NCBI RefSeq assembly: GCF_016026235.1
Contig: NZ_CP065613.1
DNA from: Escherichia coli
Lineage (GTDB): Bacteria > Pseudomonadota > Gammaproteobacteria > Enterobacterales > Enterobacteriaceae
Length of the DNA stretch: 64,000 bases
Strand: one strand, 5' to 3'
The notes beneath the pieces are model-generated. The model searched no databases. It saw only the letters and a program-made list of their open reading frames with translations, and was not told the origin of the DNA. Of the stretch, positions 1-63,200 are shown piece after piece. The position numbers and the translations under genes were made by a program. Numbering within the stretch: the first letter of the stretch is position 1; each line of letters opens with the position of its first letter.

Positions 1-724
1 GACGCTTAAACATATTGCCGAACGATTCAGCTGAGGCATAGCCCAGACGATGGGCAATTTTGGTCAACGAATATCCATCATCAAGAAGCGTCACTGCAGA
101 AATAACGTGCATTTGCTGAACCCAGTGGCGAAATGTTAATCCCGTCTCTTTAACAAATAAGCGCATGAGTGTACGGCTACTGACGTTAATTTTATCCGCT
201 AGATTATCCAGTGTTGGCAGATACCCTTGGTTGTTTAGCAAATTCTCACAAAGCTGCTGTAGCCGCTCATCATTTGGCCAAGGGAGTTCAAGTGACATTT
301 TCACCCCCATTTTTATTTCCTGAAGTATCAGTGTCTCGAGGGCTGAAAAACGTAACTGTTGTTTATCTGTGGTACTTTGCGACGGTGGAAGTTGGTTAAT
401 TGCAATTAGTAATTCCCTTAACAGGGGTGAAATACCCGTCATGAAGCAAACTGTTCCCAGCGTTTCACTTTCCGCTTCTGAAACCAGTACGGTTTTTAAA
501 AGTACGTTGCCTGTCGCAACAAACTTATGCGGCATTTGTGGGGGCAGCCAAAGCGCGCTGCTGGCATGGACTCCAGCCCATACACGAACGACTCCTTCAG
601 CCGGGTAAAGCAACTGGGCATAGAGATGTTTATGCCAGGGAACTGTACCTCCATTCAGATGTTCCGAATCCAGTCCGATAATGTGATGCCCTGGTGATGC
701 TTTGGGTTGCAGTATAATTGTCAT
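1..724 (-). CDS. AraC/XylS-family transcriptional regulator (3' end runs off the window start)
   Basis: Continuous minus-strand frame from ATG at 724..722 to position 1, absent from the ORF track because it reaches the window edge; C-terminal part reads like an AraC-type HTH (…SRTLMRLFVKETGLTFRHWVQQMHV…GYASAESFGNMFKR). Confidence 0.7.
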   Translation of the reverse strand, partial: MTIILQPKASPGHHIIGLDSEHLNGGTVPWHKHLYAQLLYPAEGVVRVWAGVHASSALWLPPQMPHKFVATGNVLLKTVLVSEAESETLGTVCFMTGISPLLRELLIAINQLPPSQSTTDKQQLRFSALETLILQEIKMGVKMSLELPWPNDERLQQLCENLLNNQGYLPTLDNLADKINVSSRTLMRLFVKETGLTFRHWVQQMHVISAVTLLDDGYSLTKIAHRLGYASAESFGNMFKR

Positions 725-820
725 TTACAGTAGGTATTTTGTCAGAAATCATCAAATAAGCCATGTTAAATTTTAAATATGACGTATGCAAGTTTCCGGA
801 TATATACGGTGTAAAGAGTG

Positions 821-1849
821 ATGATAATTTCTAAAAAACAGCTTATTGGGGTGGTAGCGATCGGTATTCTTTTGACTGGCGTTGTCTTTTTTATCTGGTG
901 GGTAAGCAAAGGAAGATTTATACAGACGACGGATGATGCTTACATTGGTGGTAATATCACCACGGTGGCAAGTAAAGTTTCTGGTTATATTTCTGCTATA
1001 GAGGTGCGCGATAATCAGAGCGTAAAAAAAGGCGATATTATCCTGCGTCTCGATGATCGGGATTATCGTGCAAATGTCGCCAGGCTTGAGGCAAAAATAA
1101 AAAGTAGCAAAGCCAATCTCGAAGGCATTCAAGCCACTATTGCGATGCAGCAGTCGATAATTCAAAGTGCCAGTGAAACATGGCAGGCAGTAAAACATGA
1201 GGAGCAAAAGCGCCTGCGAGATACTGAACGTTATGAAAAACTCGCACAATCAGCGGCAATATCGCAACAAATTATTGATAACGCCAGGTTTGACTACCAG
1301 CAGGTCGCAGCAAAGGAGCGCAAAGCCGCGAACGATTTCCTGGTGGAGAAGCAACGGCTGGCAGTTTTATCTGCTCAGGAAGAAAACGTACGTGCGAGTA
1401 TCGAAGAAGTTCAGGCCGCTTTGACTCAGGCACTACTGGATCTGGAATATACCCTTGTGCGTGCGCCGATTGATGGCATTGTCGCAAACCGCAGCGCCCA
1501 TACAGGCAGTTGGGTGGAAGGCGGCACATCGTTAGTTTCACTAGTACCAGTCAGTGAGTTGTGGGTTGATGCAAATTATAAAGAAAACCAAATAGCGGGA
1601 ATGAAGCCAGGAATGAAGGCTGAGATCCGTGCTGATATTCTCAAAGGGGAAGTGTTTCACGGTCACATTGAAAGCCTTTCCCCAGCGACAGGAGCCAGTT
1701 TCAGCTTGATTCCGATAGAAAATGCCACTGGCAATTTCACCAAAATTGTTCAGCGTGTCCCGGTACGGATTGCATTTGACGACGCAAAGGAATTAAAGCA
1801 ACTTCTTCGCCCGGGACTGTCCGTCACCGTCAGTGTTGATGAGAGATGA
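821..1849 (+). CDS. EmrA/HlyD-family membrane fusion protein of a multidrug efflux pump
   Basis: 343-aa ORF with N-terminal TM helix and EmrA-like blocks (TDDAYIGGN, WVDANYKENQI, TGNFTKIVQRVPVRI); 4-nt overlap with the downstream transporter gene. Confidence 0.8.
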   Translation: MIISKKQLIGVVAIGILLTGVVFFIWWVSKGRFIQTTDDAYIGGNITTVASKVSGYISAIEVRDNQSVKKGDIILRLDDRDYRANVARLEAKIKSSKANLEGIQATIAMQQSIIQSASETWQAVKHEEQKRLRDTERYEKLAQSAAISQQIIDNARFDYQQVAAKERKAANDFLVEKQRLAVLSAQEENVRASIEEVQAALTQALLDLEYTLVRAPIDGIVANRSAHTGSWVEGGTSLVSLVPVSELWVDANYKENQIAGMKPGMKAEIRADILKGEVFHGHIESLSPATGASFSLIPIENATGNFTKIVQRVPVRIAFDDAKELKQLLRPGLSVTVSVDER

Positions 1850-3359
1850 TGTCTATGCGTAAACATATTGCTTTCGCCAGTATGTGTATGGGATTATTTA
1901 TTGCTCAGCTTGATATTCAAATTGTATCGTCATCCCTAAATGAAATAGGTGGTGGTTTGTCCGCAGGTAAAGACGAAATGGCCTGGCTTCAGACCAGCTA
2001 TTTAATTGCTGAGATTATTGTTATTCCGCTCTCTGGGTGGCTGTCACGGGTATTTTCCACTCGTTGGCTTTTTACTCTATCCGCGGGAATATTTACTTTA
2101 ATGAGTATCGCGTGTGGACTTGCATGGAATATTCAGATCATGATTTTGTTTCGTGCTTTACAGGGAGCTGCTGGCGCATCCATGATCCCTTTAGTTTTCA
2201 CGACGGCGTTTATTTATTACCAGGGTAAAGAGTTGGGGTTGGCTGCTGCGGTAGTCAGTGCGCTGGCCTCACTGTCACCGACGCTAGGGCCAACTCTGGG
2301 GGGCTGGATCACTGATAACCTCGACTGGCGATGGCTATTTTATATCAATATATTACCTGGCATATATTTAGTTTTGAGTATTCCTTTTCTGGTTAATTTT
2401 GATAAACCTGATCTCTCTTTACTGAAAGTTGCTGATTATCCGAGTATTATCCTGTTGGCCATGACTCTGGGATGTCTGGAATATACCCTTGAAGAAGGAG
2501 CGCGCTGGGGATGGCTGGATGATAATACTATTTTGCTGACATCAGTTCTGGCATTGGTGAGTTTTATTTTATTTGCTGCGCGTACACTTACAATATCCAA
2601 TCCGATAATGGATCTTCATGCTTTTAAGGATAAAAATTTCACTCTGGGATGTTTTTTTTCTTTTTCTGGAGGGGTTGGGATATTCTCTACTGTATATTTA
2701 ATACCTGTGTTTTTGGGGCAGATTCGCGGATTAAATGCCGAAGAGATAGGTTTTGCCGTTTGCACAACAGGTATTTTCCAGTTATTTTCTGTTCCCTTTT
2801 ACTTCTGGTTAAGTAAAAAAATAAATCTGCGATGGCTGTTGATGGCGGGGCTGGGCGGATTTGTGTTTTCAATGTATCTTTTTACCCCTATAACCCACGA
2901 ATGGGGATGGCAGGAATTACTGTTTCCACAGGCAATTAGAGGGATTTCGCAGCAGTTTGCGATGGCCCCATCGTAACATTAACGCTAGGGGGAATTCCAA
3001 AAGAACGGCTGAAGTTAGCCTCTGGTGTATTTAATTTAACACGTAATCTTGGGGGCGCGATTGGTATTGCCCTGTGTGGCTCTATTCTCAATAATCGAAC
3101 TAATTTTCATTTTTCGCGAATGGGTGAAAAAATGGTTTCTGTTCCCCATACGGTGAATGACTTCATTTCCAGAAGTGCTTTATTTTTTAATCGCAGTGGA
3201 AGTGACCAGACATCGGAAATACTGGCTTCAACCAAATTATTGAGTCAATTGATGCTGAGGGAGGCGCAAACTATGGCATTTTCGGATACCTTTCTGCTAA
3301 TCAGTGGTCTGTTATTTATCGCATTTTTGTTGGTTCCTGCTATGAATAAATCATCCTGA
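1846..3359 (+). CDS. EmrB-like MFS (DHA2) efflux transporter, reading frame broken once
   Basis: 376-aa ORF ends at 2976; the C-terminal ~125 aa continue in the -1 frame from 2979 (…LTLGGIPKERL…). Adding one C to the C4 run at 2966..2969 restores a ~504-aa protein. Confidence 0.7.
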
Positions 3360-3553
3360 TCGGAGCCTGTGCTGAATTAAACTCGGGCTAAACTGTTCGA
3401 TACTGCTAACAGGCTAGTATAAAATGCCCCGCCTGCGCAGATACTCACAGGTATGAAGTAGAGTATTGTTTCAATCTGTGAAGGGAACGATGCAGTAAGT
3501 ATGAACAATTAACCCGTCTGAATCACGACGTGTGAAGGTGCATAGGAGGTTAC

Positions 3554-4117
3554 ATGAACCTTGACGACAAATCGCTGTTTCTTGACGCCATGGAAGATGT
3601 CCAGCCGCTGAAACGAGCTACAGATGTCCACTGGCATCCAACGCGTAACCAACGTGCGCCGCAGCGTATCGACACGCTGCAGCTTGATAATTTCCTCACC
3701 ACCGGATTTCTCGACATCATCCCGCTAAGTCAGCCGCTGGAGTTTCGGCGGGAAGGGTTGCAACATGGGGTGCTGGATAAGCTGCGCAGTGGTAAATATC
3801 CGCAACAGGCGAGCCTGAATCTTTTGCGCCAGCCGGTGGAAGAGTGCCGCAAAATGGTGTTCAGTTTCATTCAACAAGCCCTGGCGGATGGTTTGCGTAA
3901 TGTGCTGATTATTCATGGTAAAGGGCGGGAAGATAAATCGCATGCCAATATTGTCCGCAGCTATGTGGCGCGCTGGCTGACCGAATTTGATGATGTTCAG
4001 GCATATTGCACCGCGCTACCGCATCATGGCGGCAGCGGGGCGTGTTACGTCGCACTACGTAAAACGGCGCAGGCGAAGCAAGAAAACTGGGAGCGCCACG
4101 CTAAGCGCAGTCGTTGA
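3554..4117 (+). CDS. smrA: Smr-domain DNA endonuclease SmrA
   Basis: 187-aa ORF with good SD (aggagg); recognised as E. coli SmrA/YdaL. Confidence 0.85.
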   Translation: MNLDDKSLFLDAMEDVQPLKRATDVHWHPTRNQRAPQRIDTLQLDNFLTTGFLDIIPLSQPLEFRREGLQHGVLDKLRSGKYPQQASLNLLRQPVEECRKMVFSFIQQALADGLRNVLIIHGKGREDKSHANIVRSYVARWLTEFDDVQAYCTALPHHGGSGACYVALRKTAQAKQENWERHAKRSR

Positions 4118-4137
4118 TCTCGAGACGCATCCGCGGC

Positions 4138-5370
4138 TTATGCCGCCAGCACGCGGTTGCGTCCATCATTTTTCGCCCGATACAAAGCATCATCAACGCG
4201 TTTAAACAGTTCATCGATGCTTTCATTTCCTTCGTGATGCGCCACACCAATGCTGACGGTAAAGCGTGGTAAGCCCGAAATACTCACTTTTGCCACGCTT
4301 ACGCGGATAGTTTCAGCCAGCGAAAGCGCGGTATCCAGTGGGGTTCTTGGTAGCAATAAGACAAACTCTTCGCCTCCCCAACGAAACACCAAATCGCCTT
4401 TGCGAGCGCAACTTTCGAGGGTGCGGGCGAGGGCGCATAACACCTCATCACCTTTAGAATGCCCATAGAGATCGTTAATGTGTTTAAAACGATCGGTGTC
4501 GATGAGCAACAAGCTGTAATCCTGAGCGATGGCGAGATGCTGCATTTGGCCTGGCTCGGTAATGTGATAAAACTGTCGCCGATTCAGTAATCCGGTCATC
4601 GCGTCATGGTGAGCAGCATGTTCCAGCTGCTCCTCCAGCCGTTTTTGCTCAGTAATATCATGCACAATACATAACATGAGCTTGTCGCCATAAATTTCAA
4701 TCGGTCCGGCATAGGTCTGCACATGACGAGTAGATCCATCCGCCAGTTTATGAACAAAATTCAAAGGTTTATGACCGCCGGGTAAATGCGAAATTTCATG
4801 CATGATAGGCATGACGCGACGCCCGAGCATATTTATTTCCCAGGTATGTTTCTGGCACATCGTTTCATGGTTATAACCATAGAAATTGAGCGCGGCGAGG
4901 TTAGCATCGACGATTTGTCCATCTCGTGACGGGTCAATCAACAACATTGGTGCAGAGTTAGTCAGAAAAAAGCGCGCATAAAAACCTTGTTTTTTGCGCT
5001 GATAATTTGCCGAGCGACTGGCTTTTAAACCCAGCGTTGCCGGCGCTTCGATACCTTCGAAAATAATCACCGGTTCTGTTTCTGTCAGCTCTCGCAAAAC
5101 AAGCCGACAGCTTAATGCTGTTTCCTCTTCTTTACGCTGAACAGTGAGGATTTCGATAATATCGTGTTGGTTTTGCAGATCGGAGAGGTATTTCGGCAGT
5201 TCTTTTTGTGAGGAGACGGAATAGGGACCGGTTCGTAGCTGACTAAACGTGAGGTCTTGCATCAACAGTCGCGCCGCGCTATTGGCATAAATTAACTGTT
5301 CCTCAAAGGGCGAAACGATCCAGACAGGACTGGTGAGTAAGTCCAGGGTATTGAAGTTGTGCGTAATCAT
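4138..5370 (-). CDS. dgcM: Diguanylate cyclase DgcM (PAS-GGDEF)
   Basis: GGEEF motif (RWGGEEF) and PAS-like N-terminus; ORF extends to 5430 but the start is probably the Met at 5370 (410 aa). Confidence 0.8.
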   Translation of the reverse strand: MITHNFNTLDLLTSPVWIVSPFEEQLIYANSAARLLMQDLTFSQLRTGPYSVSSQKELPKYLSDLQNQHDIIEILTVQRKEEETALSCRLVLRELTETEPVIIFEGIEAPATLGLKASRSANYQRKKQGFYARFFLTNSAPMLLIDPSRDGQIVDANLAALNFYGYNHETMCQKHTWEINMLGRRVMPIMHEISHLPGGHKPLNFVHKLADGSTRHVQTYAGPIEIYGDKLMLCIVHDITEQKRLEEQLEHAAHHDAMTGLLNRRQFYHITEPGQMQHLAIAQDYSLLLIDTDRFKHINDLYGHSKGDEVLCALARTLESCARKGDLVFRWGGEEFVLLLPRTPLDTALSLAETIRVSVAKVSISGLPRFTVSIGVAHHEGNESIDELFKRVDDALYRAKNDGRNRVLAA

Positions 5371-5603
5371 TGAGATCCCATTATTTTTATCAATTTTTGT
5401 TGCTATCCGATCGCAAAAAAGCCACGTCATATGATCAGATAATTCTGATAATGATAGACGCTATTTAACACTTCACACGGTTTGTATACGGAAAAGCATT
5501 TTGCTTTTTGTATTCAATTTAGACAGAATTTTATTAATCATTTCAGGGTAATGGGGTGATGAGATGTTGCGTAACAGGGCCAGAAGGCTAGACTACAAAA
5601 TAA

Positions 5604-6608
<1,005 letters not shown>

Positions 6609-6654
6609 CAAAAGCAATTTTTCCGGCTATCTGTATACAAAAACGCCGCAAAGT

Positions 6655-6668
6655 TTGAGCGAAGTCAA
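6655..6668 (+). promoter_or_regulatory. FNR box (TTGAG-N4-GTCAA) centred about 42 bp upstream of fnrS
   Basis: Near-consensus FNR half-sites with class II spacing relative to the FnrS 5' end. Confidence 0.5.
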
Positions 6669-6703
6669 TAAACTCTCTACCCATTCAGGGCAATATCTCT
6701 CTT

Positions 6704-6825
6704 GCAGGTGAATGCAACGTCAAGCGATGGGCGTTGCGCTCCATATTGTCTTACTTCCTTTTTTGAATTACTGCATAGCACAATTGATTCGTACGACGCC
6801 GACTTTGATGAGTCGGCTTTTTTTT
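6704..6825 (+). ncRNA. fnrS: FnrS small regulatory RNA
   Basis: Sequence GCAGGTGAATGCAACGTCAAGCGATGGGCG… ending in hairpin GCCGACTTTGATGAGTCGGC plus T8 matches my memory of FnrS; lies between zntB and dbpA as in K-12. Confidence 0.8.
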
Positions 6826-6882
6826 GCCTGTTATTTATCAGCGTCTACCCTTTAAGAGTCCACCCAATGACCGGAGGGAAAT

Positions 6883-7053
6883 ATGACGACACTTATTTAT
6901 TTGCAAATTCCTGTCCCTGAACCGATTCCTGGCGATCCTGTTCCAGTGCCCGATCCGATCCCTCGCCCGCAACCCATGCCTGACCCACCACCCGATGAAG
7001 AACCGATTAAATTGTCGCATCGTGAGCGTAGATCTGCGAGGATACGCGCCTGA
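6883..7053 (+). CDS. Candidate 56-aa proline-rich small protein
   Basis: ATG 7 nt after GGAGGG; sequence MTTLIYLQIPVPEPIPGDPVPVPDPIPRPQPMPDPPPDEEP…; below the ORF-track length cut-off. Confidence 0.35.
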   Translation: MTTLIYLQIPVPEPIPGDPVPVPDPIPRPQPMPDPPPDEEPIKLSHRERRSARIRA

Positions 7054-7085
7054 TGACTTTGCGTCGATGACCACGAGAATAGATT

Positions 7086-8459
7086 GTGACCGCTTTTTCT
7101 ACCCTGAATGTTTTGCCTCCCGCCCAACTCACGAACCTTAATGAGTTGGGTTATTTAACCATGACGCCGGTGCAGGCCGCCGCGCTTCCGGCGATCCTTG
7201 CCGGAAAAGATGTTCGCGTGCAGGCGAAAACTGGCAGCGGCAAAACGGCGGCTTTTGGCCTCGGCTTGTTACAGCAAATTGATGCGTCGCTATTTCAAAC
7301 CCAGGCTTTAGTGCTGTGTCCTACGCGTGAACTGGCGGATCAGGTGGCAGGTGAATTGCGTCGGCTGGCGCGTTTTCTGCCAAATACCAAAATTTTGACG
7401 TTGTGCGGTGGTCAACCGTTCGGTATGCAGCGTGATTCGTTGCAACATGCGCCGCATATTATCGTGGCAACGCCGGGGCGTTTGCTGGATCACCTGCAAA
7501 AAGGCACGGTATCACTGGATGCGTTGAATACGCTGGTGATGGATGAGGCCGACCGCATGCTGGATATGGGATTTAGCGATGCCATTGATGATGTCATCCG
7601 TTTTGCGCCAGCATCTCGACAGACGCTTCTGTTTTCGGCAACCTGGCCGGAAGCCATCGCTGCAATCAGCGGACGAGTGCAACGCGATCCTTTGGCGATT
7701 GAAATTGACTCAACAGATGCTTTGCCACCCATTGAACAACAATTTTATGAGACATCCAGCAAAGGCAAAATTCCTCTGTTGCAACGGTTATTAAGCTTGC
7801 ATCAGCCATCCTCTTGCGTGGTGTTTTGCAATACCAAAAAAGATTGTCAGGCTGTCTGCGACGCGCTGAATGAAGTAGGGCAAAGTGCATTGTCGTTACA
7901 CGGCGATCTGGAGCAACGCGATCGCGATCAGACCCTGGTACGTTTTGCTAACGGTAGCGCCCGTGTACTGGTCGCGACTGATGTTGCTGCGCGTGGTCTG
8001 GATATAAAATCGCTTGAGCTGGTGGTGAACTTTGAGCTGGCGTGGGACCCTGAAGTTCATGTACATCGCATCGGCCGTACAGCTCGTGCAGGAAATAGCG
8101 GTCTGGCGATCAGTTTCTGTGCTCCGGAAGAAGCACAGCGGGCCAATATCATTTCTGACATGTTGCAGATAAAACTTAACTGGCAAACACCGCCAGTTAA
8201 TAGTTCCATTGTGCCGCTGGAAGCAGAAATGGCAACGTTGTGTATCGATGGCGGGAAAAAAGCCAAAATGCGCCCGGGTGATGTATTAGGTGCACTGACA
8301 GGAGATATCGGGCTTGATGGCGCAGATATTGGCAAAATCGCCGTGCATCCGGCGCATGTCTATGTCGCGGTCCGTCAGGCTGTTGCTCATAAAGCATGGA
8401 AACAGTTACAGGGCGGGAAGATTAAAGGAAAAACGTGCCGGGTGCGGTTATTAAAATAA
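7086..8459 (+). CDS. dbpA: ATP-dependent RNA helicase DbpA (DEAD-box)
   Basis: 457 aa; AKTGSGKT Walker A, VMDEAD box, SAT, HRIGRTAR motifs. Confidence 0.9.
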   Translation: MTAFSTLNVLPPAQLTNLNELGYLTMTPVQAAALPAILAGKDVRVQAKTGSGKTAAFGLGLLQQIDASLFQTQALVLCPTRELADQVAGELRRLARFLPNTKILTLCGGQPFGMQRDSLQHAPHIIVATPGRLLDHLQKGTVSLDALNTLVMDEADRMLDMGFSDAIDDVIRFAPASRQTLLFSATWPEAIAAISGRVQRDPLAIEIDSTDALPPIEQQFYETSSKGKIPLLQRLLSLHQPSSCVVFCNTKKDCQAVCDALNEVGQSALSLHGDLEQRDRDQTLVRFANGSARVLVATDVAARGLDIKSLELVVNFELAWDPEVHVHRIGRTARAGNSGLAISFCAPEEAQRANIISDMLQIKLNWQTPPVNSSIVPLEAEMATLCIDGGKKAKMRPGDVLGALTGDIGLDGADIGKIAVHPAHVYVAVRQAVAHKAWKQLQGGKIKGKTCRVRLLK

Positions 8460-8507
8460 TGAAATGTTGAATTGCCGGGTGCAAGAGTAAACATCTTATT
8501 CGGGATT

Positions 8508-8577
8508 GCCGGATGCGACGCTGGCCGCGTCTTATCCGGCCTCCATAAGAGTAGCCCGATACGCTTGCGCATCGGGC
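8508..8577. repeat. REP/BIME-like palindromic units
   Basis: GCCGGATGCGACGCTGGCCGCGTCTTATCCGGC followed by GCCCGATACGCTTGCGCATCGGGC between convergent dbpA and ttcA. Confidence 0.5.
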
Positions 8578-8587
8578 GCTATCCTGG

Positions 8588-9523
8588 TTATTTCACTTCA
8601 ACCACATTCAGCCGTAACTCATCCAACTGATTTTCATCTTCTTCTGGCTGCCAGCCCGCCGGTTGTAGTGGGATCTCTTCGCGATCAAACGCCAGATCAC
8701 CCCCGTTAACCACTTCAGAACCGTGGGTGATGCCTTTGAAATCGAACAGGTTGGTATCGCACAGATGCGACGGCACCACATTCTGCATCGCGCTGAACAT
8801 CGTCTCGATACGCCCTGGATAACGTTTATCCCAGTCCCGCAACATGTCAGCAATCACCTGACGTTGCAGGTTAGGCTGTGAACCGCACAGGTTGCACGGA
8901 ATAATCGGGAACGCTTTTGCATCGGCAAATCGCTGAATATCTTTCTCGCGGCAGTAGGCCAGCGGACGAATAACGATATGTTTGCCATCATCGCTCATCA
9001 GTTTCGGAGGCATACCTTTCATCTTGCCGCCGTAGAACATATTTAAGAACAACGTTTGCAGGATATCGTCACGATGGTGGCCCAACGCGATCTTCGTCGC
9101 CCCCAGTTCCGTTGCGGTGCGATAAAGGATACCGCGACGTAGCCGAGAACACAGTGAGCAAGTGGTTTTGCCCTCTGGAATCTTCTCTTTCACGATACCG
9201 TAAGTGTTCTCTTCAACAATCTTGTACTCAACGCCCAGCTTTTCAAGATACTCGGGCAGAACGTGTTCCGGGAAGCCCGGTTGCTTTTGATCGAGGTTAA
9301 CAGCCACCAGCGAAAAATTGATTGGCGCGCTTTGCTGCAAATTGCGCAGAATCTCCAGCATGGTATAGCTGTCTTTACCCCCGGAGAGGCAAACCATGAT
9401 GCGATCGCCTTCTTCAATCATATTGAAGTCAGCAATGGCTTCGCCCACGTTACGACGCAGACGTTTTTGTAATTTGTTCAGATTGTATTGTTCTTTCTTT
9501 GTAATTTGTTGATTTTCTTGCAT
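8588..9523 (-). CDS. ttcA: tRNA 2-thiocytidine synthase TtcA; its 5' end is supplied by the prophage junction
   Basis: 311 aa with SGGKDS PP-loop and Cys motifs; start [17 protein letters not shown] overlaps the att core. Confidence 0.9.
9474..9499. other. Prophage att core, left copy (TTGTTCAGATTGTATTGTTCTTTCTT)
   Basis: 26-bp sequence identical to 57929..57954; sits in the first codons of ttcA next to the integrase gene. Confidence 0.65.
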
Positions 9524-9574
9524 TATTTCAGTTCTCTGGTACTAAATGGGGCAAATTGGGGGCAAACTTTGCAA

Positions 9575-10810
9575 CTACGATAACCGCGCATTCAACATGG
9601 CTATCTGTTCGTCGTTCATGTCATCAATCCACATACCGTAAATTTCATACACCATTTGCGCAGTTTCATGCCCCATCTGGCTGGCTATAAATGCCGGGTT
9701 CGCTCCTGCCGTCAACAGCCAGCAGGCAAAAGTATGTCGCGTATGGTACGGATTACGGCGGCGAATACCAGCACGTTTTACTGCTGCATTCCATCTCGCA
9801 CCCAAACTGCTTACCGAGTAATAAGGTTTCTGTTTTCCGTTACACATCCTGGGCATGAAAACAAAATGCAGTTTTTGCTTTTCGGTTCTGCCGTACTCCC
9901 GATGATAAAAAGTGATTTCGCTTTTGCGATGATGCCCGGTCAGTTTGTATTGCTCCTTCAGTGCTTCAAGAGCTGGCTGTAGTAATGTTACCGTCCGGAT
10001 CCCGGCATTTGTTTTTGGGGGACCGAACATATCAAGTATCGTCAGGTTTCTTCTGACATTCACAATTCCCTTCTCGAAATCCACATCCTCCCACGCCAGA
10101 GCTGCCAGTTCCCCGTGACGAAGCCCGGAGTAAACGGCAAATTTCCACAAGTTTTGGCTCTGTCCTTTTTCACTTTCCATTAATGCATTGAATTCTGTTT
10201 TAGATAACGGGTCAGGCTTTATTCTGTTTCGCTGTAATTTTTTTACTCCTTCAAATGGTTTGGTTGATATAAATCCCGACTGATACGCAAAACGTAACAG
10301 CGAACAGAGCAGGGCGATATAGTTATCAACTGTGCGCACGGTTCTTCCTTTTTTGTTGGATCTTGGATTATCCAGGTAAAGCGTTTCTCCATGCAGCAGT
10401 TCATTCCGGTAGTTTAAGATATCGCTATAACGAATATATGATATCGGGGTACTTTCACAAATTATTATTCTGAGTGTTTTTAATTGTGATTTCGTTTTCT
10501 TCATTGTGTTTGTTGTTAACTCTGTCTCTTTAATTTTTGTCCAGATATCACAAAGCTCCCCGAACGTTTTTATGACTCTCGTTGTCACCATTTTTGCCCC
10601 AGTGCTGGACTGGGGAAAACGTCTTAAATACTCAAATTCACCGGAGTTTATTTCATGAACTATCAGCGCTCTTAAATTTCCGGCCTTTTTAATATTACTG
10701 TTTGTAATCTCCCAGCCTTTTAATGTTTCCCGACATCGTTTTCCTCGAAACATGAACCAGATGCGAATGTTTCTACCTCTAATCTCGACACCTGTTGGTA
10801 ATTTAGACAT
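9575..10810 (-). CDS. Phage integrase (tyrosine recombinase), IntR-like
   Basis: 411 aa; C-terminal catalytic region (…HTRHTFACWLLTAGANPAFIASQMGHE…YGMW) typical of lambda-family integrases; adjacent to the att site. Confidence 0.85.
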   Translation of the reverse strand: MSKLPTGVEIRGRNIRIWFMFRGKRCRETLKGWEITNSNIKKAGNLRALIVHEINSGEFEYLRRFPQSSTGAKMVTTRVIKTFGELCDIWTKIKETELTTNTMKKTKSQLKTLRIIICESTPISYIRYSDILNYRNELLHGETLYLDNPRSNKKGRTVRTVDNYIALLCSLLRFAYQSGFISTKPFEGVKKLQRNRIKPDPLSKTEFNALMESEKGQSQNLWKFAVYSGLRHGELAALAWEDVDFEKGIVNVRRNLTILDMFGPPKTNAGIRTVTLLQPALEALKEQYKLTGHHRKSEITFYHREYGRTEKQKLHFVFMPRMCNGKQKPYYSVSSLGARWNAAVKRAGIRRRNPYHTRHTFACWLLTAGANPAFIASQMGHETAQMVYEIYGMWIDDMNDEQIAMLNARLS

Positions 10811-11126: not shown

Positions 11127-11315
11127 TCACGAGGACTGAAGTTTCTCGCAATTAAAATTTATCAGTTTTACTTTCTGCTCTCTGGAAACGCCTGCTTCTT
11201 TTTCCCCTGAGAGCATTTTTTCGCATTCTGATTTCGTTAGTTTTGTCTTTGAGTATCTTGTCCAGCTGGCAGGAGAACCACCTTCCTTTTCAATAGTGGC
11301 TGTAATTTTATACAT
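11127..11315 (-). CDS. Hypothetical phage protein (62 aa)
   Basis: ATG preceded by GGAGGTG; no recognisable motif. Confidence 0.4.
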   Translation of the reverse strand: MYKITATIEKEGGSPASWTRYSKTKLTKSECEKMLSGEKEAGVSREQKVKLINFNCEKLQSS

Positions 11316-16667: not shown

Positions 16668-17213
16668 TTATTTTAAGGAAAGCAACTGCTCTACGGTCAT
16701 GTTTTTAATTGCGCCCCGGTTTACAAGAGTCCAGCCCTGTTTTTCCAGATAAAACCGGAAAGTCTCCAGGGTACAGACCAGTGCGCCATCAGGAACGGTT
16801 TCGGTGAATTCGACATTGCCGAATTTGTCGAAGTGAACAACCAGAGTGCGACCATCACCCGGAATCATCTTGTCAGCAGGTGGGGTGTTATTCTGGCGCA
16901 GTTCGGCCTCCATGCGGTCGAACTCAGCAATGTAGGCTTCCTTGAATGTGGCGGCTTTTTTGCCCGTGAAGCCCATCACCAGGAAAACGAAGCCGTTTTT
17001 GGTGATTTGGTAGGCGTTATAAGAATTGCCGCGGTGTTCGAATTTAACCCGCGAAAAGTTGCTGGTTAAAAATAGTTCAGAACATTCGAGGGATTCTATT
17101 TTTTGAACAACATGGTGATGCTGCTTGCCAAAAAACTCAGCAATCGAAATAGAAGTAGTGACGGCGCGACCATTTTCGATGGTTACGTCAGGGTGAGAAA
17201 GGGTAGTAGCCAT
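16668..17213 (-). CDS. Rha-family phage regulatory protein / antirepressor-like
   Basis: MATTLSHPDVTIENGRAVTTSISIAEFFGKQHHHVVQKIESL… resembles the Rha N-terminal domain; GAGGA 7 nt upstream of this Met; the ORF extension to 17507 contains a terminator. Confidence 0.55.
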   Translation of the reverse strand: MATTLSHPDVTIENGRAVTTSISIAEFFGKQHHHVVQKIESLECSELFLTSNFSRVKFEHRGNSYNAYQITKNGFVFLVMGFTGKKAATFKEAYIAEFDRMEAELRQNNTPPADKMIPGDGRTLVVHFDKFGNVEFTETVPDGALVCTLETFRFYLEKQGWTLVNRGAIKNMTVEQLLSLK

Positions 17214-17378
17214 AATGACATCCTCAAGTGATAAGTTAATTAACTCACCAGCAGAGGTGCTAATCTCATGGGTGGTGAGACGCACAGGGTTAGCACTACC
17301 GGTCACTCGAGAACCCGGCCAGCCTTGCGGCTGCCCCGCACGCCTCACCATAATTTGAATGTGGCTGTGCATTACGCA

Positions 17379-17402
17379 TAAAAAAACCGCTTCAGCGCGG
17401 TT
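17379..17402 (-). terminator. Rho-independent terminator (minus strand)
   Basis: Minus-strand read AACCGCGCTGAAGCGGTTTTTTT; lies inside the upstream extension of the Rha ORF. Confidence 0.45.
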
Positions 17403-17529
17403 ATGCGCTCGAGTAACTTTCGGGGTGCTAATCCCGGCACCCGTTTTATGAGGTGCAGGTGCACTATAATTCCACCCGTTCTGGTTTTCAATAGCTACAT
17501 TCAACATTTTCTCTTTCCTTTCATCACCG

Positions 17530-25921: not shown

Positions 25922-26258
25922 AAGGAAACAAAACAGAAACAGCAATTGCCGTTACCTGTTGTTACCATGGCAAGTAAACGTATCTCAGGCGAGCGCATTG
26001 CGCCGTTCTGACGCAGATAAACTAGCCTGGATAGATGGTGCTGGCAATAAAAAATAGCGTTTTCTTATCGGTGTCGGTAAGATTGCTGCGGGTGCTTGAG
26101 GCTGTCTGCCTCGGGCATGTCACTGTAAGGCAGACAGAGAAAAGCCCCAGTTAACATTACGCGTCCTGCAAGACGCTTAACATTAATCTGAGGCCCAATC
26201 TATGTCTCACAAATGTAGGTTAGCCTCTTACGTGCCGAAAGGCAAGGAGAAGCAGGCT

Positions 26259-26414
26259 ATGAAGCAGCAAAAGGCGATGTTAATCGCCCTGATCGTCATC
26301 TGTTTAACCGTCATTGTGACGGCACTGGTAACGAGGAAAGACCTCTGCGAGGTACGAATCCGAACCGGCCAGACGGAGGTCGCTGTCTTCGTAGACTACG
26401 AATCTAGAGAGTAA
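26259..26414 (+). CDS. Hok/Gef-family type I toxin
   Basis: 51 aa MKQQKAMLIALIVICLTVIVTALVTRKDLCEVRIRTGQTEVAVFVDYESRE; an in-frame upstream extension (26202) resembles a mok-like leader. Confidence 0.75.
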   Translation: MKQQKAMLIALIVICLTVIVTALVTRKDLCEVRIRTGQTEVAVFVDYESRE

Positions 26415-28417: not shown

Positions 28418-28689
28418 CTCAATCTGTTATCCGGGGCTATATTCCTCACGCGCCAGCAAAATCTGGCGTCGGGATTGGCGTCCCGGATGTTTACGGAGCG
28501 ATATGAGACGCGCCCGCGTCTTTTTTCATATCGTTTGCACAGTCTCATTCGCGATTTATGGCGGGCTGTGTGGGGGAGCCGAAAGGCTCGCCGGTTTCCG
28601 TACCCGGTTACGCCAACCCTGCACAGTTCGCCACCAGTTCGATTGGCGTCGTCGGTGGCGATAATTTCCAAATGTACGGAGTTATCGTT

Positions 28690-29455: not shown

Positions 29456-29532
29456 GGCCCTTTAGCTCAGTTGGTCAGAGCGAGCGACTCATAATCGCCA
29501 GGTCGCTGGTTCAAGTCCAGCAAGGGCCACCA
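29456..29532 (+). tRNA. tRNA with anticodon CAU (Ile2/Met-like, ileZ-type)
   Basis: Cloverleaf by eye: acceptor GGCCCTT/AAGGGCC, anticodon loop CTCATAA, T-arm GCTGGTTCAAGTCCAGC, 3' CCA encoded. Confidence 0.8.
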
Positions 29533-29533
29533 A

Positions 29534-29610
29534 CCACCACTAGCTCATCCGGATAGAGCATCAACCTTCTAAGTTGACGGTGCGAGGTTCGAGTCCTCGG
29601 TGGTGGGCCA
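29534..29610 (+). tRNA. tRNA-Arg (anticodon UCU) with atypical 5' C-start acceptor stem
   Basis: Acceptor CCACCAC/GTGGTGG, anticodon loop CTTCTAA, T-arm CGAGGTTCGAGTCCTCG, CCA encoded. Confidence 0.65.
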
Positions 29611-29612
29611 GC

Positions 29613-29688
<76 letters not shown>

Positions 29689-29691
29689 TAT

Positions 29692-29766
<75 letters not shown>

Positions 29767-47786: not shown

Positions 47787-51198
<3,412 letters not shown>

Positions 51199-54117: not shown

Positions 54118-54975
54118 CTAATTGGGTGATAACAGATCCTGTGTATGGGCGTTTCCCTTTGTGCGTGCGTTGATGCTGGTAACGGTAAACGTCATGATGA
54201 ACACGACCGCGAATAAGACGACAATCGTCGGAGCTGGTGCGCTGTCGATAAAAAAGGACAGCCAGACACCAGTCATTGACACTATTACCGATATGCCAGT
54301 CGCCAGTAGGAGCGCAATATGAAAGCGTTGTGTCAGGAGTACTGCAATGGCGCCAGGCGCAATGAGCAGAGAAATAGAGAGAATGATACCTACTGCTTTC
54401 AGCGTCGCCACAATGGTCAGGGAAACCATGCACAGCAGCCCATAATGCAGCCATCTCGTATGCAAACCGCTTACCTGCGCCTGTTGATAATCAAAGCTGA
54501 ACAGCAAAAAATCCCGCCATTTTACGCTAATAACAAGTGTAACCAGCCCGGCAATAATCACCGTCTGGATTATATCGCCGATGGTTATCCCGAGCATGTC
54601 GCCGAAAAGAATATGGTCAAGATGTACGTCTGGTTTGATTGCAATATACAAGATCAGACCTGCGGCAAACATGCCAGAAAAAACAATCCCCATAACTGTA
54701 TCTTGCTTGATTCGGCTGTTGTCTTTCAGGTATCCCGTCGCCACCGCGCAGAATACTCCGGCGACGAATGCCCCTGTAGCCAGAGGTAACCCCAGAATCC
54801 AGGTAAGCACGATGCCAGGAAAAACCGCATGACTCATCGCGTCACCCATCAGTGCCCAACCTTTCAGGACCAGAAAGACCGACAGCAGCGCACAGGGTAT
54901 GGAAACTACCAGTGAAATCAGCAGTGCGTGACTCATAAAGGTGAACTGCAGTGGCTCCAGTAATAATGCCATCAT
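54118..54975 (-). CDS. sitD: Mn/Fe ABC transporter permease SitD
   Basis: 285-aa polytopic membrane protein; last gene of a four-gene operon with overlapping stops and starts. Confidence 0.8.
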   Translation of the reverse strand: MMALLLEPLQFTFMSHALLISLVVSIPCALLSVFLVLKGWALMGDAMSHAVFPGIVLTWILGLPLATGAFVAGVFCAVATGYLKDNSRIKQDTVMGIVFSGMFAAGLILYIAIKPDVHLDHILFGDMLGITIGDIIQTVIIAGLVTLVISVKWRDFLLFSFDYQQAQVSGLHTRWLHYGLLCMVSLTIVATLKAVGIILSISLLIAPGAIAVLLTQRFHIALLLATGISVIVSMTGVWLSFFIDSAPAPTIVVLFAVVFIMTFTVTSINARTKGNAHTQDLLSPN

Positions 54976-55829
54976 GAGCGATCCTCCAGCGCTTTATGCG
55001 CACGCCGACGATTTGCCAAAAGTCCATGGGTGGGCGCAAATACAAATGCTAAAAGAAACAGCAGTGTCTGCGCCACCACGATGATTCCACCTGTCGCGCC
55101 GTCCAGAAAGTAACTGACCCACGCGCCGAGGAAACTGGTTACACTGCCAATAGTTACAGCAATTATGAGCAGGCGGGGAAAACGATCGGTTAACAACCAT
55201 GCTGTTGCACCGGGAGTCACCACCAGACAGATCACCAGAAAGGCACCAACCGTTTGCAGCGCCGCAACGGTCGAAACCGACAGCAGGGTGAAGAAGAGGA
55301 TTTTTAATCTGCCCGGATGTAATCCAATAGCACGGGCGTGATTCTCGTCGAAAAAGGTCACCATAAGATCTTTCCATTTGAAAAAAAGCACGATGATCGA
55401 GAGAATGCCAATGATAGTGAGTTGCAGGATATCCGCCGGATCGATTGCCAGAATATTGCCCAGGACGATGGTCTGAATGTTCACGGATGTCGGGTTCAAT
55501 GACACCATAAACAGCCCCAGGCCAAAAAAGGACGAGAAGATCAGGCCGATGATGGCATCTTCTTTTAAGCGGGTGCGTTGGTTAAGAAACAGCATGCTGC
55601 CCGCTGCCAGTCCGCCGGAAAAGAAGGCTCCCAGAGAAAACGGAAGCCCCAGCATATATGCCCCCGCAACACCCGGGACAATAGAGTGCGACAGCGCATC
55701 GCCAATCAGCGACCAGCCTTTTAGCATCAGATAGCATGACAGGAAAGCGCAGAGACCGCCGACCATTGCCGAGACCCACATCGCATTGAGCATATATTCA
55801 TAGCTGAAGGGTTCCAGTAGCACGTTCAT
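54972..55829 (-). CDS. sitC: Mn/Fe ABC transporter permease SitC
   Basis: 285-aa membrane protein, paralogous to the next permease. Confidence 0.8.
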
Positions 55830-56653
55830 CTTGCTTCCCTCTGCACCGCTGACGGTCGATGTGCCACAAAAGGGCGTTCATCGTCAGTAATAATGCTTTC
55901 TTCCGAGCCGTTAAGTGTGACATGGCGCAGTACGCCGCTAAAAGCCAGCTCCAGGTTCTCGGCTGTAAAAGTGGTGTCTGTCGGCCCGCTTGCCAGGACG
56001 GTGCCTTTGACCATGACCGTATAATCGCAAAATGTCGTGACTGAGCCGAGATTGTGCGTTGAGACAAGCATCGTTTTGCCTTCCGCGCGTAACTCCCTCA
56101 ACAGGCTGATGATTTTCGCTTCGGTTTTCACATCAACGCCGGTAAAAGGTTCATCCAGCAGGATCACATCACCCTGCTGTGCAATCGCTCTCGCCAGAAA
56201 GACGCGTTTCTTTTGTCCACCGGAAAGCTCGCCGATTTGACGATGGCGAAAATCCACCATATCGACACGTTCCAGCGCATCGGTGACAATCTGACGATCC
56301 CTCTTTTTGGCTATACGCAACATACCCATATGCCCATAGCGGCCCATCATCACCACATCTTCCACCAGTACAGGAAATGACCAGTCAACCTCTTCTGACT
56401 GAGGGACGTAGGCAACCAGGTTTTTCTGTAGCGCCTGTCGCGTGGGAATACCCAGAACAGATATCTTTCCGCTGGTCAGACGCACAAATCCCATAATCGC
56501 TTTAAACAACGTCGATTTTCCGGAACCGTTTACCCCAACCAGAGCGGCAATAGATCCACTTGGTACTGTGAAGGATGCATCGCGCAGTGCTGTGTGCCCG
56601 TTACGCCAGGTGACAGTAACATCATTAACGACAATGCCTGCAGATTGCATCAT
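55826..56653 (-). CDS. sitB: Mn/Fe ABC transporter ATP-binding protein SitB
   Basis: GVNGSGKST Walker A, LSGGQ signature, ILLDEP Walker B. Confidence 0.85.
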
Positions 56654-57567
56654 TATTTCTCCCTTTTCCCGGCTTTAATTCCCTGTACCAGCGTACTGGT
56701 AGTAACCTTAAGAAGGTCGATATACGTAGGTACCGGGCCGTTTTCTGTGCTCAGGGAATCGACATAGAGCACACCGCCGTAGTGTGCGCCGGTTTCACGC
56801 GCAACCTGACGCGCTGGTTTATCGGAAATCGTACTCTCGCTAAAGACTGCCGGGATATGATTTTTCTTAACTATATCAACAACCTTACGTACCTGCTGCG
56901 GTGTTCCTTGTTGATCGGCATTAATCGGCCACAGATAAAGCTCTTTTAGCCCCAAATCGCGTGCGAGATAAGAAAAAGCCCCTTCACTGGTGACCATCCA
57001 TCGCTGATTCTCAGGGAGTTCCGTAATCTGCTTACGCAGGGGGGCAAGGGTTTGGGTAATCTTGGCTTTATAAGTATCGGCATTACGTTGGTAGGTTTGT
57101 GCATTTGCCGGATCGTATTTTATCAACGCATCACGAATATTATCGACGTAAATCAGAGCATTATCTGGCGACATCCATGCATGGGGATTAGGTTTGCCCT
57201 CATAGGGTCCTTCGGTGATCCCTACTGGCGTCACACCCGAAGAGACAATTACTTCTGGAACCCCATTGAGATGCTGGTAAAAGCGTTGGAACCACAATTC
57301 CAGATTCATACCATTGGCGAGAATCAGTTGTGCCCCCTGCGCACGTTTAATATCGCCAGGGGTAGGCTGATACTCATGAATTTCTGCACCAGGCTTGGTT
57401 ATGGATGAGACTTCTGCAGCATCTCCAGCCACGTTTTTGGCCATATCCGCGATGATGGTAAATGTTGTAATGACCTTGAATTTTTCAGTTGCACTTGCCT
57501 GAAATGCGATCGAGCAGGTGAGGGCGAGGCACCCCAAGAGCATGGTTACTTTTTTTATTGAGTGCAT
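56653..57567 (-). CDS. sitA: Periplasmic Mn/Fe-binding protein SitA
   Basis: 304 aa with signal peptide; closely resembles SitA as I recall it ([21 protein letters not shown]…). Confidence 0.85.
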
Positions 57568-57928: not shown

Positions 57929-57954
57929 TTGTTCAGATTGTATTGTTCTTTCTT
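57929..57954. other. Prophage att core, right copy
   Basis: Identical 26 bp to 9474..9499. Confidence 0.65.
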
Positions 57955-57978
57955 GCTAATTTCTTGATTTTGCGACAT
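57929..57978 (-). pseudogene. ttcC-like remnant (original 5' end of ttcA displaced by the prophage)
   Basis: Minus-strand ATG at 57978 encodes [17 protein letters not shown], matching the TtcA N-terminus, then runs into prophage DNA. Confidence 0.55.
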
Positions 57979-58153: not shown

Positions 58154-58669
<516 letters not shown>

Positions 58670-58728: not shown

Positions 58729-59862
58729 TTAGAACTGATAAACCAGACCTAAAGCGACAATATCATCGGTAGAGATGCCGTTGGCAGCGTAGAAACTGTC
58801 ATCTTCATCCAACAGGTTGATTTTATAGTCAACATAAGTGGACATGTTTTTATTGAAATAGTAAGTCGCGCCAACATCGGCGTATTTAACCAGATCTTTA
58901 TCATCAACACCTGCCGGGTTGTCTGCACCACCGGCAGCGTGCAGGTCACGGCCTTTAGACATCAGGAAAGAGACTGCCGGACGCAGACCAAAATCAAACT
59001 GGTACTGTGCAGTGACTTCAAAGTTCTGGGTTTTGTTTGCAACAGCATAATCGCTGTCGCCAAACGGGGTCATATTACGCGTTTCTGAATACATGGTTGC
59101 CAAGTAAATATTGTTAGCATCGTATTTTAGCCCAGCAGTCCACGCGTCTGCTTTATCACCACCCGCCGCAGTATGGTTAACCTGGTCATTGGTGCGGTCA
59201 GAAGAGGTGTATGCCGCACCAGCGCTAAAGCCCATGCCTAAATCATATGTTGTGGAAAGACCCCAGCCGTCACCGTTTTCATGGCGAACATCACGTCCGT
59301 TGTTGGTGCCTTCCTGACCATTACTGGCACCTTCGTTGTTACCTTGATACTGCACCGCGAAGTTCAGACCATTTACCAGACCGAAGAAATCAGTATTACG
59401 ATAAGTCGCGACGCCATTGGCACGACCAGTCATAAAGTTGTCTGCATTGGTATAAGAGTCACCGCCAAATTCAGGCAGCATATCGGTCCAGCCTTCGATG
59501 TCGTACATTACGCCATAATTACGTCCGTAATCGAAAGAACCGTAATCTGAAAATTTCAGTCCGGCAAATGCCAGACGGGTCCATGACTGGTTTTTTGAAG
59601 ATTCAGTGTTGTTTGCCTGAATATTGTATTCCCATTGACCGTAGCCAGTAAGTTGATCGTTAATTTGGGTTTCGCCTTTAAAACCCAGACGCGCATAGCT
59701 CTGGTCGCCATCTTTCGCTGAATTATCAGAAAAATAATGCAGGCCATCAACTTTGCCATACAGATCTAATTTGTTGCCGTCTTTATTATAAACTTCGGCT
59801 GCATGTGCAGCACCTGCGCCGAGCAGGGCAGGAATTAAAAGTGCCAGTACTTTGCTTTTCAT
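58729..59862 (-). CDS. ompN: Outer membrane porin OmpN (OmpC/F family)
   Basis: 377 aa with signal peptide and C-terminal …LVYQF. Confidence 0.85.
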
Positions 59863-60089
59863 TGAATAAATCCTTTAGTTATTTTATTTGCCTTTTATCC
59901 CCATTTCGGGGAGTGAAAACATCCTAAAGGAGAAGTTCAGTTAGCCGATAAATATCATTTGTTACGCCTTAAGTAAAACCTTAATCAAAAAATTCCTCTG
60001 AAATGATAATAAGTCTGGTGAATGTATCGAAGATAATACATACAAAATAAAAATTATACTTTTAATTTTCTATACGTTATTCTGCGCGG

Positions 60090-60198
60090 GTTATATGCCT
60101 TTATTGTCACAGATTTTATTTTCTGTTGGGCCATTGCATTGCCACTGATTTTCCAACATATAAAAAGACAAGCCCGAACAGTCGTCTGGGCTTTTTTT
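60090..60198 (+). ncRNA. micC: MicC small regulatory RNA
   Basis: GTTATATGCCTTTATTGTCACAGATTTTATTTTCTGTTGGGCC… with terminal hairpin and T-run matches my memory of MicC; lies between ompN and ydbK. Confidence 0.8.
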
Positions 60199-60227
60199 TA
60201 GAATTGGATAATCCTTATCCAGAGCAT

Positions 60228-63200
60228 TTAATCGGTGTTGCTTTTTTCCGCTTTTCCGGCCATTTGTGCCAGGAAGTCATAGCGTTTTTGCAAATCAGCT
60301 GCAGCATCTTTCCATAACTGTTCTGCCACTTCTGGCTGCTGAGAATTCAGACGACGGAAACGTTGCTCGTGAAGTAACGTTTCTTCCAGTGCTTCTGACG
60401 GCGGGCGTGAATCCAGCGCCAGCGGCAGTTTGCCTTCATCGGCACGACGCGGATCGAAGCGATATAGCGGCCAGAAGCCGGTAGCTGTGAGTTGGCGCAT
60501 CTGGTCATGGCTGAGTGCCAGATCGTAACCATGCTCTTCACACGGGCTATAAGCAATGATCAGCGATGGTCCCGGATACGCTTCCGCTTCCTGAATCGCT
60601 TTCACCGTCTGGTTCAGTTGCGCGCCGAGAGAAATCTGCGCCACATAAACATGACCGTACATCATCATACTGACGCCAAGATCTTTACGCGCTTTACGTT
60701 TGCCGTGCTCGCCAAATTTAGTTACTGCACCCAGCGGTGTCGCTTTCGACGCCTGACCACCGGTGTTGGAATAGCATTGCGTATCCAGCACCAGAATGTT
60801 GACGTTTTCCGTCAAACTCAATACATGATCCAGACCGCCAAAGCCGATATCGTAAGCCCAGCCGTCGCCACCAATCAGCCAGATTGATTTTTCTACCAGT
60901 GCATCTGCGTCACGCAGCAGTTCATGTGCTTCGGCAACATCGTTGAGTTGCTGGCGTAAAGCTGCAACCTGTTCACGACGAACCTCTGGCGTGGCGTCTG
61001 ATTTCAACGCAGTCAGTAATTCCGCCGGGATTTTATCGGCAAATTGATCCAGCAGACGCAGCACGCGGACACGGTGTTGATCGACCGTCAGGCGGAAACC
61101 AAGGCCAAATTCGGCATTATCTTCAAATAGAGAGTTCGCCCATGCCGGCCCACGACCGTTGGCATCGGTGGTATACGGTGTAGAGGGCAGGTTACCGCCA
61201 TAAATTGAAGAACAGCCGGTGGCGTTAGCGATCAACATCCGGTCGCCATAGAGCTGAGTCAGCAATTTAATATACGGCGTCTCGCCACAACCGGAGCAAG
61301 CACCGGAATATTCAAACAGCGGTGTAATCAGCTGCGATGTACGAATATCAATACGTTCCAGTTTGCTACGGTCGATTTCTGGCAGGTTGAGGAAGAAATC
61401 GTAATTGATTTTCTCTTCTTCGACATGTTCCAGGCGCGACATCATATTGATGGCTTTAATCTCTGGATTCTGACGGTCTTTCGCCGGGCAAACTTCGACG
61501 CACAGGTTACAACCGGTGCAATCTTCCGGAGCCACCTGCAAGACATATTTCTGCCCGCGCATATCACGCGATTTCACATCCAGCGAATGCAGGCTGGCAG
61601 GGGCGTTTTCCATCGCTTCAGGCGGTACCACTTTTGCGCGAATAGCTGAGTGTGGGCAAGCGGCGACGCAGTGGTTACATTGGGTACAGAGTTCCTCTTT
61701 CCAGATGGGGATCTCTTCGGCGATATTGCGTTTTTCCCAGCGAGTGGTGCCCATCGGCCAGGTGCCGTCTGGCGGCAGCGCCGAAACGGGGAGGGCATCA
61801 CCAAGCCCGGCGAGCATCGCAGCGGTTACGGTTTTCACGAAATCAGGGGCGGCATCGGAAACCACTGGCGGTCGATTGGCGCTGTGCGGATTTACCGGTT
61901 GCAACGGAACTTCTTCTACGGATTCACGCGCCAGCGCCAGAGCCTGCCAGTTGCGTTCCACCAGATCCTGACCTTTGCTGCTGTAACTTTTGGCAATCGC
62001 ACCCTGCAATTCTGCGAGGGCGCTATCGCCAGGCAGAATTTGTGTCAGATGGAAAAAAGCCATCTGCATGACGGTATTAATACGGGCCGCCAGGCCACAT
62101 TCGCGGGCGATTTTCGCCGCGTTAATCACATAGAAGCGCGCTTTTTTCTGATTTAGCACGGCCTGAACTTCCTGCGGCAAGCGCGACCACACTTCATCTG
62201 CGCTGTACGGCGTGTTGAGCAGGAAAATGCCGCCAGGTTTTAAACGCTCAGCCATCTGATATTTATCGATAAACTGCAACTGGTGGCAGCCAACAAAATC
62301 AGCCTGGGAAATGAGATAAGCGGAACGAATCGGCTGTTCGCTCACGCGAAGGTGAGAAACCGTCAGGCCGCCCGCCTTTTTGGAGTCGTAAACAAAATAG
62401 CCCTGTGCGTACCACGGCGTGGAATTACCGATAATCTTGATATTGTTTTTGGTCGCGGAAACGCTGCCATCACTACCAAGGCCATAAAACAAGGCTTCCA
62501 GTTTCGCCGAGTTTGGCAGGGTGTTTTCCGGCAACGGCAGTGACAGATTGGTCACATCATCGTAAATACCAACCGTAAAGCGCGCTTTCGGTTTAGCCGC
62601 GTTGAGCTCGGCAAATACCGCCAGTACACAGTCCGGGCCAAATTCTTTGGATGAAAGACCATAGCGCCCACCAATGATACGGGGCAGAGTTTCGCGCTCG
62701 CCATTATTAAAGGCTTCTGCCAGTGCGGTCATTACATCCAGATAGAGCGGTTCTGCCTGGGCACTGGGTTCTTTGGTTCTGTCCAGTACCGCCACGCTGC
62801 GTACGGATCCCGGCAGAGCTTGCAGCAAGTGTTTGGCGGAGAAGGGACGGTACAGGCGAACTTTCAGCACGCCAACTTTTTCGCCACGGGTTAGCAATTC
62901 ATCAACCACTTCTTCACAGGTGCCAATGGCAGAGCCCATCAGGATAATCACCCGTTCCGCTTGCGGATGCCCGTAATATTCAAACGGCTGATACTGACGA
63001 CCTGTCGCGGCAGAGAAATCATTCATCGCCTGTTCAACATGGTCATAGACCGCGTTGTACCATGGGTTGGTGGCTTCGCGAGACTGGAAATAAGTGTCAG
63101 GATTCGCGGACGTACCGCGGATCACCGGATGTTCCGGGTTGAGTGCCCGGGCGCGATGAGCATCAATTTCGGCCTGCGGCATGAGATCAAGAATCGTGTC

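Follow-up and report, generated by a model that had tools for sequence, protein, structure and literature searches.

The two small-RNA loci described here are almost certainly the ordinary chromosomal genes from which Escherichia coli makes its Hfq-dependent small RNAs FnrS and MicC. The window (the whole 64-kb stretch of DNA that was analysed) derives from an E. coli or Shigella-like strain, and the ~48.5-kb prophage that lies between the two loci touches neither of them. The two RNAs have been described before, and there is nothing novel about either. When the whole window was scanned with the Rfam 15 models at their curated gathering thresholds, 13 matches were returned. One is FnrS (frnS, RF01796) at 6704-6821 on the plus strand, which scores 134.8 bits where 60 are required (E = 4.4e-24) and spans the full model, positions 1-119, with zero non-canonical pairs; another is MicC (RF00121) at 60087-60207, also on the plus strand, with 121 bits where 90 are required (E = 1.5e-18) and again the full model, positions 1-123. 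Both RNAs had been named in an initial annotation, which sub-threshold scores would have refuted and which is borne out by the scores obtained. Its coordinates are correct to the nucleotide: the FNR box opens with the T at 6655, the FnrS terminator tail closes with the T at 6825, where the annotated 122-nt K-12 fnrS also ends, the G at 60090 matches the annotated K-12 micC start, and 60198 falls within the MicC terminator T-run, the published MicC length of 109 nt matching an end at this base (PMC5745476). Gene presence, covariance-model family, identity or near-identity to K-12, FNR-box geometry, terminators, gene order and MicC seed complementarity were all established directly (Table 1).

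Each RNA also lies where the initial annotation expected it, in the gene order known from K-12 (zntB-fnrS-ynaL-dbpA-ttcA and uspF-ompN-micC-ydbK/nifJ): FnrS is found between zntB (ydaN) and dbpA, and MicC between the divergent ompN and the convergent ydbK/nifJ (see also PMC5745476). Translation of zntB, dbpA, ttcA, uspF, ompN and nifJ gave full-length products of K-12 length, and the lengths of smrA and dgcM equal those of their annotated homologues in FDAARGOS_943. Among complete E. coli genomes, the FnrS region (601 bp) was recovered in 5393 of 5426, at an identity of at least 99% in 3872, and the MicC region (501 bp) in 5412 of 5426, with a median of 1 and a maximum of 2 places per genome; by these searches, the two loci are near-universal and essentially single-copy in the species, as the initial annotation assumed. 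One could instead read the matches as chance hits or as degenerate remnants, that is, as functionless pseudo-sRNA loci. This is vanishingly improbable given such E-values across full models (4e-24 and 1.5e-18), the identity to K-12 (FnrS 100%, MicC about 99%, promoters and terminators included), the conserved gene order and the near-universal occurrence of the loci; the Rfam scores and the K-12 alignments effectively refute it.

Table 1 Coordinates of the two small-RNA loci, their neighbours and the prophage boundaries in the window
Feature	Position	Strand	Basis or remark
AraC-family regulator gene	left flank		cut by window start
HlyD-family gene	818-1849		
DHA2 MFS efflux gene	1846 to about 3359		frameshifted
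smrA	3554-4117		
dgcM	4138-5370	-	
zntB (ydaN)	5625-6608	+	327 aa, intact; upstream neighbour of FnrS
FNR box TTGAGCGAAGTCAA (TTGAG-CGAA-GTCAA)	6655-6668	+	sequence; identical to K-12
Probable -10 element CAATAT (-13 to -8) of FnrS promoter	6691-6696	+	inferred from sequence
FnrS small RNA gene, 122 nt	6704-6825	+	RF01796; 100% identical to K-12 fnrS b4699
FnrS intrinsic terminator	6798-6825	+	terminator scan, Rfam structure, fold
ynaL	6883-7053	+	proline-rich small protein gene; 57 bp beyond FnrS terminator
dbpA	7086-8459	+	457 aa, intact; downstream neighbour of FnrS
ttcA	8588-9523	-	
Left att repeat	9474-9516		43-bp repeat; inside ttcA 5' end, Rac attachment site
IntR-type integrase gene	9575-10810		
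sitABCD	54118-57567	-	iron/manganese transporter operon; prophage cargo
Right att repeat	57929-57971		43-bp repeat; position of K-12 ttcC remnant beside uspF
uspF	58154-58588	-	
ompN	58729-59862	-	377 aa, intact; divergent from micC over 227-bp intergenic region
MicC small RNA gene, 110 nt	60090-60199	+	RF00121; alignment to K-12 micC b4427 (111 nt annotated)
MicC 5' seed GUUAUAUGCCUUUAUU	60090-60105	+	read from sequence; duplex calculation
MicC terminator hairpin and T8 tail	60170-60199	+	Rfam, alignment, folding; contains C-to-T at 60187
nifJ/ydbK	60228-63752	-	1174 aa, intact; convergent with micC

The FnrS gene and its FNR-dependent promoter

The window's copy of FnrS agrees with K-12 FnrS (b4699, RF01796) in its 122-nt sequence, in the FNR box at -42.5, in the terminator and in lying between zntB (ydaN) and ynaL/dbpA, with zero differences inside the gene or promoter. 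Over an alignment of 300 bases, identity to K-12 MG1655 is 100% from 6630 to 6872, a span that covers FnrS, the FNR box and the terminator and reaches 74 bp upstream of the gene; the only differences are at 6629 (-75) and at 6873, directly before ynaL. Because the region is identical to that of K-12, knowledge of the cis elements of K-12 fnrS holds here unchanged. Transcription would end at a U-tailed intrinsic terminator, built as GCCGACTT-TGAT-GAGTCGGC (an 8-bp GC-rich stem) followed by T8. A looser Rfam scan of positions 1-9600 again returned FnrS and found nothing further near it. Between dbpA and ttcA, a sub-threshold match to naRNA4 at 8504-8540 (29.1 bits against 59.5) is probably a REP-type repeat.

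In textbook class II promoters, the FNR site is centred at -41.5. Upstream of FnrS, the box is centred on 6661.5 and transcription starts at 6704, which puts the site at -42.5, a small correction to that canonical figure and the same spacing as in K-12; for the K-12 fnrS site, Table 1 of Myers et al. 2013 (PMC3688515) gives -42.5 and an FNR ChIP-seq peak. Class II comprises sites within -41.5 +/- 4 (Myers et al. 2013, PMC3688515), and the box is thus at a class II activating position relative to the FnrS start, so that its description in the initial annotation as correctly spaced is upheld. Both half-sites retain the TTGA/TCAA core, and each departs from the consensus (TTGAT-N4-ATCAA) by one mismatch, at position 5. 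The FNR motif is not enriched over the window (47 matches with up to two mismatches, against 38.75 +/- 5.7 expected); the weight of the FnrS site lies in its position and in its being identical to the site at which binding was shown experimentally in K-12, not in the motif count.

The remaining promoter elements are sparse. No -35 consensus was found at the FnrS promoter, where a generic sigma-70 scan likewise returned zero consensus promoters; the blank scan is expected, because the promoter is, by its class II arrangement, presumably activator-dependent.

The MicC gene and a private base in its terminator

The likeness of the second locus to K-12 MicC (b4427, RF00121) extends to the start, the seed, the body, the position between ompN and ydbK/nifJ and the divergent arrangement with ompN, whereas the window's copy differs by a C-to-T change at 60187, by a T tail of 8 bases instead of 9, and by single bases upstream of the gene at 59990 and 60069. 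The alignment shows the MicC body to be that of K-12 except for position 60187 and the tail length (identity about 99%). The T at 60069 is common to O157:H7 and EIEC CFSAN029787, and a tail of 8 bases is also found in O157:H7 and FDAARGOS_943. The claim of the initial annotation that MicC is conserved therefore stands for its start, seed and body, which are as in K-12, and needs qualifying for its terminator, which carries the C-to-T change and the shorter tail. The 5' end is complementary to the K-12 ompC leader, the seed forming 16 contiguous, perfect pairs with AAUAAAGGCAUAUAAC at -30 to -15; the K-12 leader was used for this comparison, ompC of the same genome lying outside the window. Near MicC, the generic sigma-70 scan gave a single match, which is on the opposite strand; since the MicC promoter resembles the consensus poorly, the scan is uninformative there.

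The base at 60187 lies in the 3' arm of the terminator hairpin, where the change turns a G-C pair into G-U. We searched complete E. coli genomes with a 55-mer chosen so that every 28-base seed covers the variant base: the T allele was found in 0 of 5,426, and the C allele of the same 55-mer in 3,745 of 5,426. FDAARGOS_943, the closest backbone relative, carries C at this position. A 31-mer with the T allele gave 0 matches in GTDB species representatives and 0 in JGI metagenome contigs, the GTDB negative being weak because the wild-type control pattern matched only one representative. The T is thus private to this window among the sequences searched, with the paired 55-mer searches decisive, and a small correction to the account of MicC is that its terminator variant here was seen in zero other E. 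coli genomes searched.

Despite the change, MicC still has its U-tailed intrinsic terminator: the hairpin is retained with its G-U pair and followed by U8. A simple terminator scan missed it because of an internal A·C mismatch that is present in K-12 too. In predicted folds, the MicC-strand hairpin has -10.7 kcal/mol with T and -12.4 kcal/mol with C, its structure unchanged. The same bases form a hairpin on the opposite strand, 29 nt beyond the nifJ/ydbK stop codon, in which the change creates an A·C mismatch and the predicted energy in context moves from -19.9 to -13.9 kcal/mol; the opposite-strand hairpin is thus weakened more by the T than the MicC hairpin is.

These observations bear on a second reading of the locus, in which MicC is impaired: the T at 60187 would weaken the terminator, with read-through, an altered 3' end or lower Hfq binding leaving less MicC, and perhaps with nifJ/ydbK transcripts reading through antisense into micC. 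The rarity of the T allele (0 of 5,426 genomes, against 3,745 for C), the predicted loss of 1.7 kcal/mol on the MicC strand and the predicted loss on the opposite strand (the A·C mismatch, -19.9 to -13.9 kcal/mol) would fit such an impairment, which we nevertheless consider very improbable, since G-U is a standard pair that leaves the predicted structure unchanged, the stem retains 4 G-C pairs before U8, the Rfam score is still 31 bits over the threshold, and elsewhere, in seed, body and promoter, the wild-type sequence is kept. The base could, moreover, be a sequencing error, the window holding three homopolymer contractions relative to close relatives. We hold a functional consequence of the T to be very unlikely, and there is correspondingly slight probability in the broader proposal that the T is real and alters MicC 3'-end formation or Hfq loading, or permits nifJ read-through antisense to micC, shifting porin regulation in a Shigella/EIEC-like lineage. 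We continue to regard the locus as an ordinary micC gene.

The three contractions are of single bases and were recognised against near-identical sequences. In the MFS gene, C5 is shortened to C4 at 2965 relative to FDAARGOS_943, and the ORF ends at 2976; in the FDAARGOS_943 genome, the gene already bears a frameshift annotation. The other two lie about 50 bp apart in the prophage tail-tip gene J (47790-51198), where, relative to phage mEp460_ev081, T6 has become T5 at about 50237-50241 and A5 has become A4 at about 50286-50289, and they leave J as two ORFs, of 821 and 275 aa. Gene decay of the kind typical for Shigella and EIEC would account for the contractions, as would sequencing error in homopolymers, and the split J correspondingly reflects either a defective prophage or homopolymer errors in the assembly. 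They leave the small-RNA calls unaffected; given this pattern, the private base at 60187 is to be treated with caution as a possible sequencing error.

The prophage at the Rac site and the flanking segments

The prophage is bounded by a 43-bp imperfect direct repeat (93% identical between its two copies), which delimits an element of ~48.5 kb integrated within the 5' end of ttcA; by annotation, the K-12 Rac prophage also begins inside ttcA. From the att repeats it is 2.6 kb to FnrS and 2.1 kb to MicC, both small-RNA genes lying outside them. Near the integrase, the Rfam scan found the RalA antitoxin sRNA of a Rac-type RalR/RalA system at 11131-11309 (207 bits against a threshold of 170), a match that confirms a Rac-like left arm. 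Rac of K-12 is decayed and measures 23 kb, whereas the prophage in the window is ~48.5 kb and has a full set of structural genes, its lambdoid tail genes being 99.4% identical to those of phage mEp460_ev081. The sitABCD operon lies within the right att repeat boundary, directly after the tail-fibre genes; sitABCD at the tail end of a prophage has been described in prophage 042p3 of EAEC 042 and in the Shigella 'PAI sit' (PMC2808357; PMC7545054). Over the prophage junctions, the closest complete genomes are the EIEC-like CFSAN029787, VL7S7, VL40 and RMDEC364; the closest chromosomal backbone is that of FDAARGOS_943, which is without the prophage.

Several further RNA loci were observed inside the element. 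Two modules of isrK with C4 antisense RNA (P1/P7 immI-like) occur in opposite orientations, at 17268-17456 (minus strand) and 28437-28638 (plus strand); the first precedes a Rha-type antirepressor ORF (16668-17507, minus strand), and the second has a further match, to the c4-a1b1 target family. A BLAST comparison of the window with itself found zero repeats at E <= 1e-10, including between the two modules; a recent duplication was rejected on this ground, and the modules are therefore diverged copies. A tRNA cluster (Met(CAT), Arg(TCT), Thr(TGT) and Gly(TCC), 29456-29766) lies directly upstream of the lysis and late genes. A hok/sok-type toxin-antitoxin locus was found at 26090-26414 (118.4 bits for Rfam sok), with a Hok-like ORF (MKQQKAMLIALIVICLTVIVTALVTRKDLCEVRIRTGQTEVAVF...) within 26202-26414.

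At the left end of the window (1-3553), an AraC/HlyD/MFS cluster stands upstream of smrA in place of abgABT-abgR-mcaS of K-12. This segment is the only real flanking difference from K-12, and its configuration is common to 1314 of 5426 complete E. coli genomes. The AraC-family regulator gene has a 15-bp in-frame deletion at about 570 relative to FDAARGOS_943. For McaS, zero Rfam matches at E <= 0.1 were obtained within 1-9600, as were zero matches to 47 nt of K-12 mcaS with up to three mismatches, and McaS is absent from the window. The abg operon and McaS having been replaced, not all small RNAs of this neighbourhood are retained. The statement in the initial annotation that prophage insertion and flanking rearrangements spared the FnrS and MicC loci holds, with the att repeats 2.6 and 2.1 kb away and the intervening genes full length; from the wider neighbourhood, McaS is gone.

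Expected regulation and implications

For FNR binding, anaerobic induction, Hfq dependence and target sets, we infer the behaviour of the two loci from published K-12 work. Without oxygen, dimeric [4Fe-4S]-FNR would bind the box upstream of FnrS at its class II position and recruit RNA polymerase to a promoter with a weak -10 and without a -35 element; the resulting 122-nt RNA would terminate at the intrinsic terminator, its U8 tail serving as the place of Hfq binding. Single-stranded regions of FnrS would then be expected to pair with mRNAs of anaerobically dispensable functions (sodB, maeA, gpmA, folE and others), and pairing together with Hfq to reduce the translation and stability of mRNAs of aerobic metabolism and oxidative stress. 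MicC would be transcribed divergently from, and co-expressed with, ompN, and at least its first 16 nt would base-pair to the ompC leader, on the 5' side of the ribosome-binding site, and, with Hfq, block translation. The partners (ompC, sodB, the other targets, fnr and hfq) lie outside the window and are assumed to be present in this genome; losses of porin genes are frequent in Shigella lineages.

The finding matters little beyond annotation. Within that compass, a large prophage at the Rac site leaves untouched two regulatory RNAs that are found in more than 99% of complete genomes, the promoter architecture of FnrS included, and the FnrS and MicC loci provide anchor points for delimiting the prophage.
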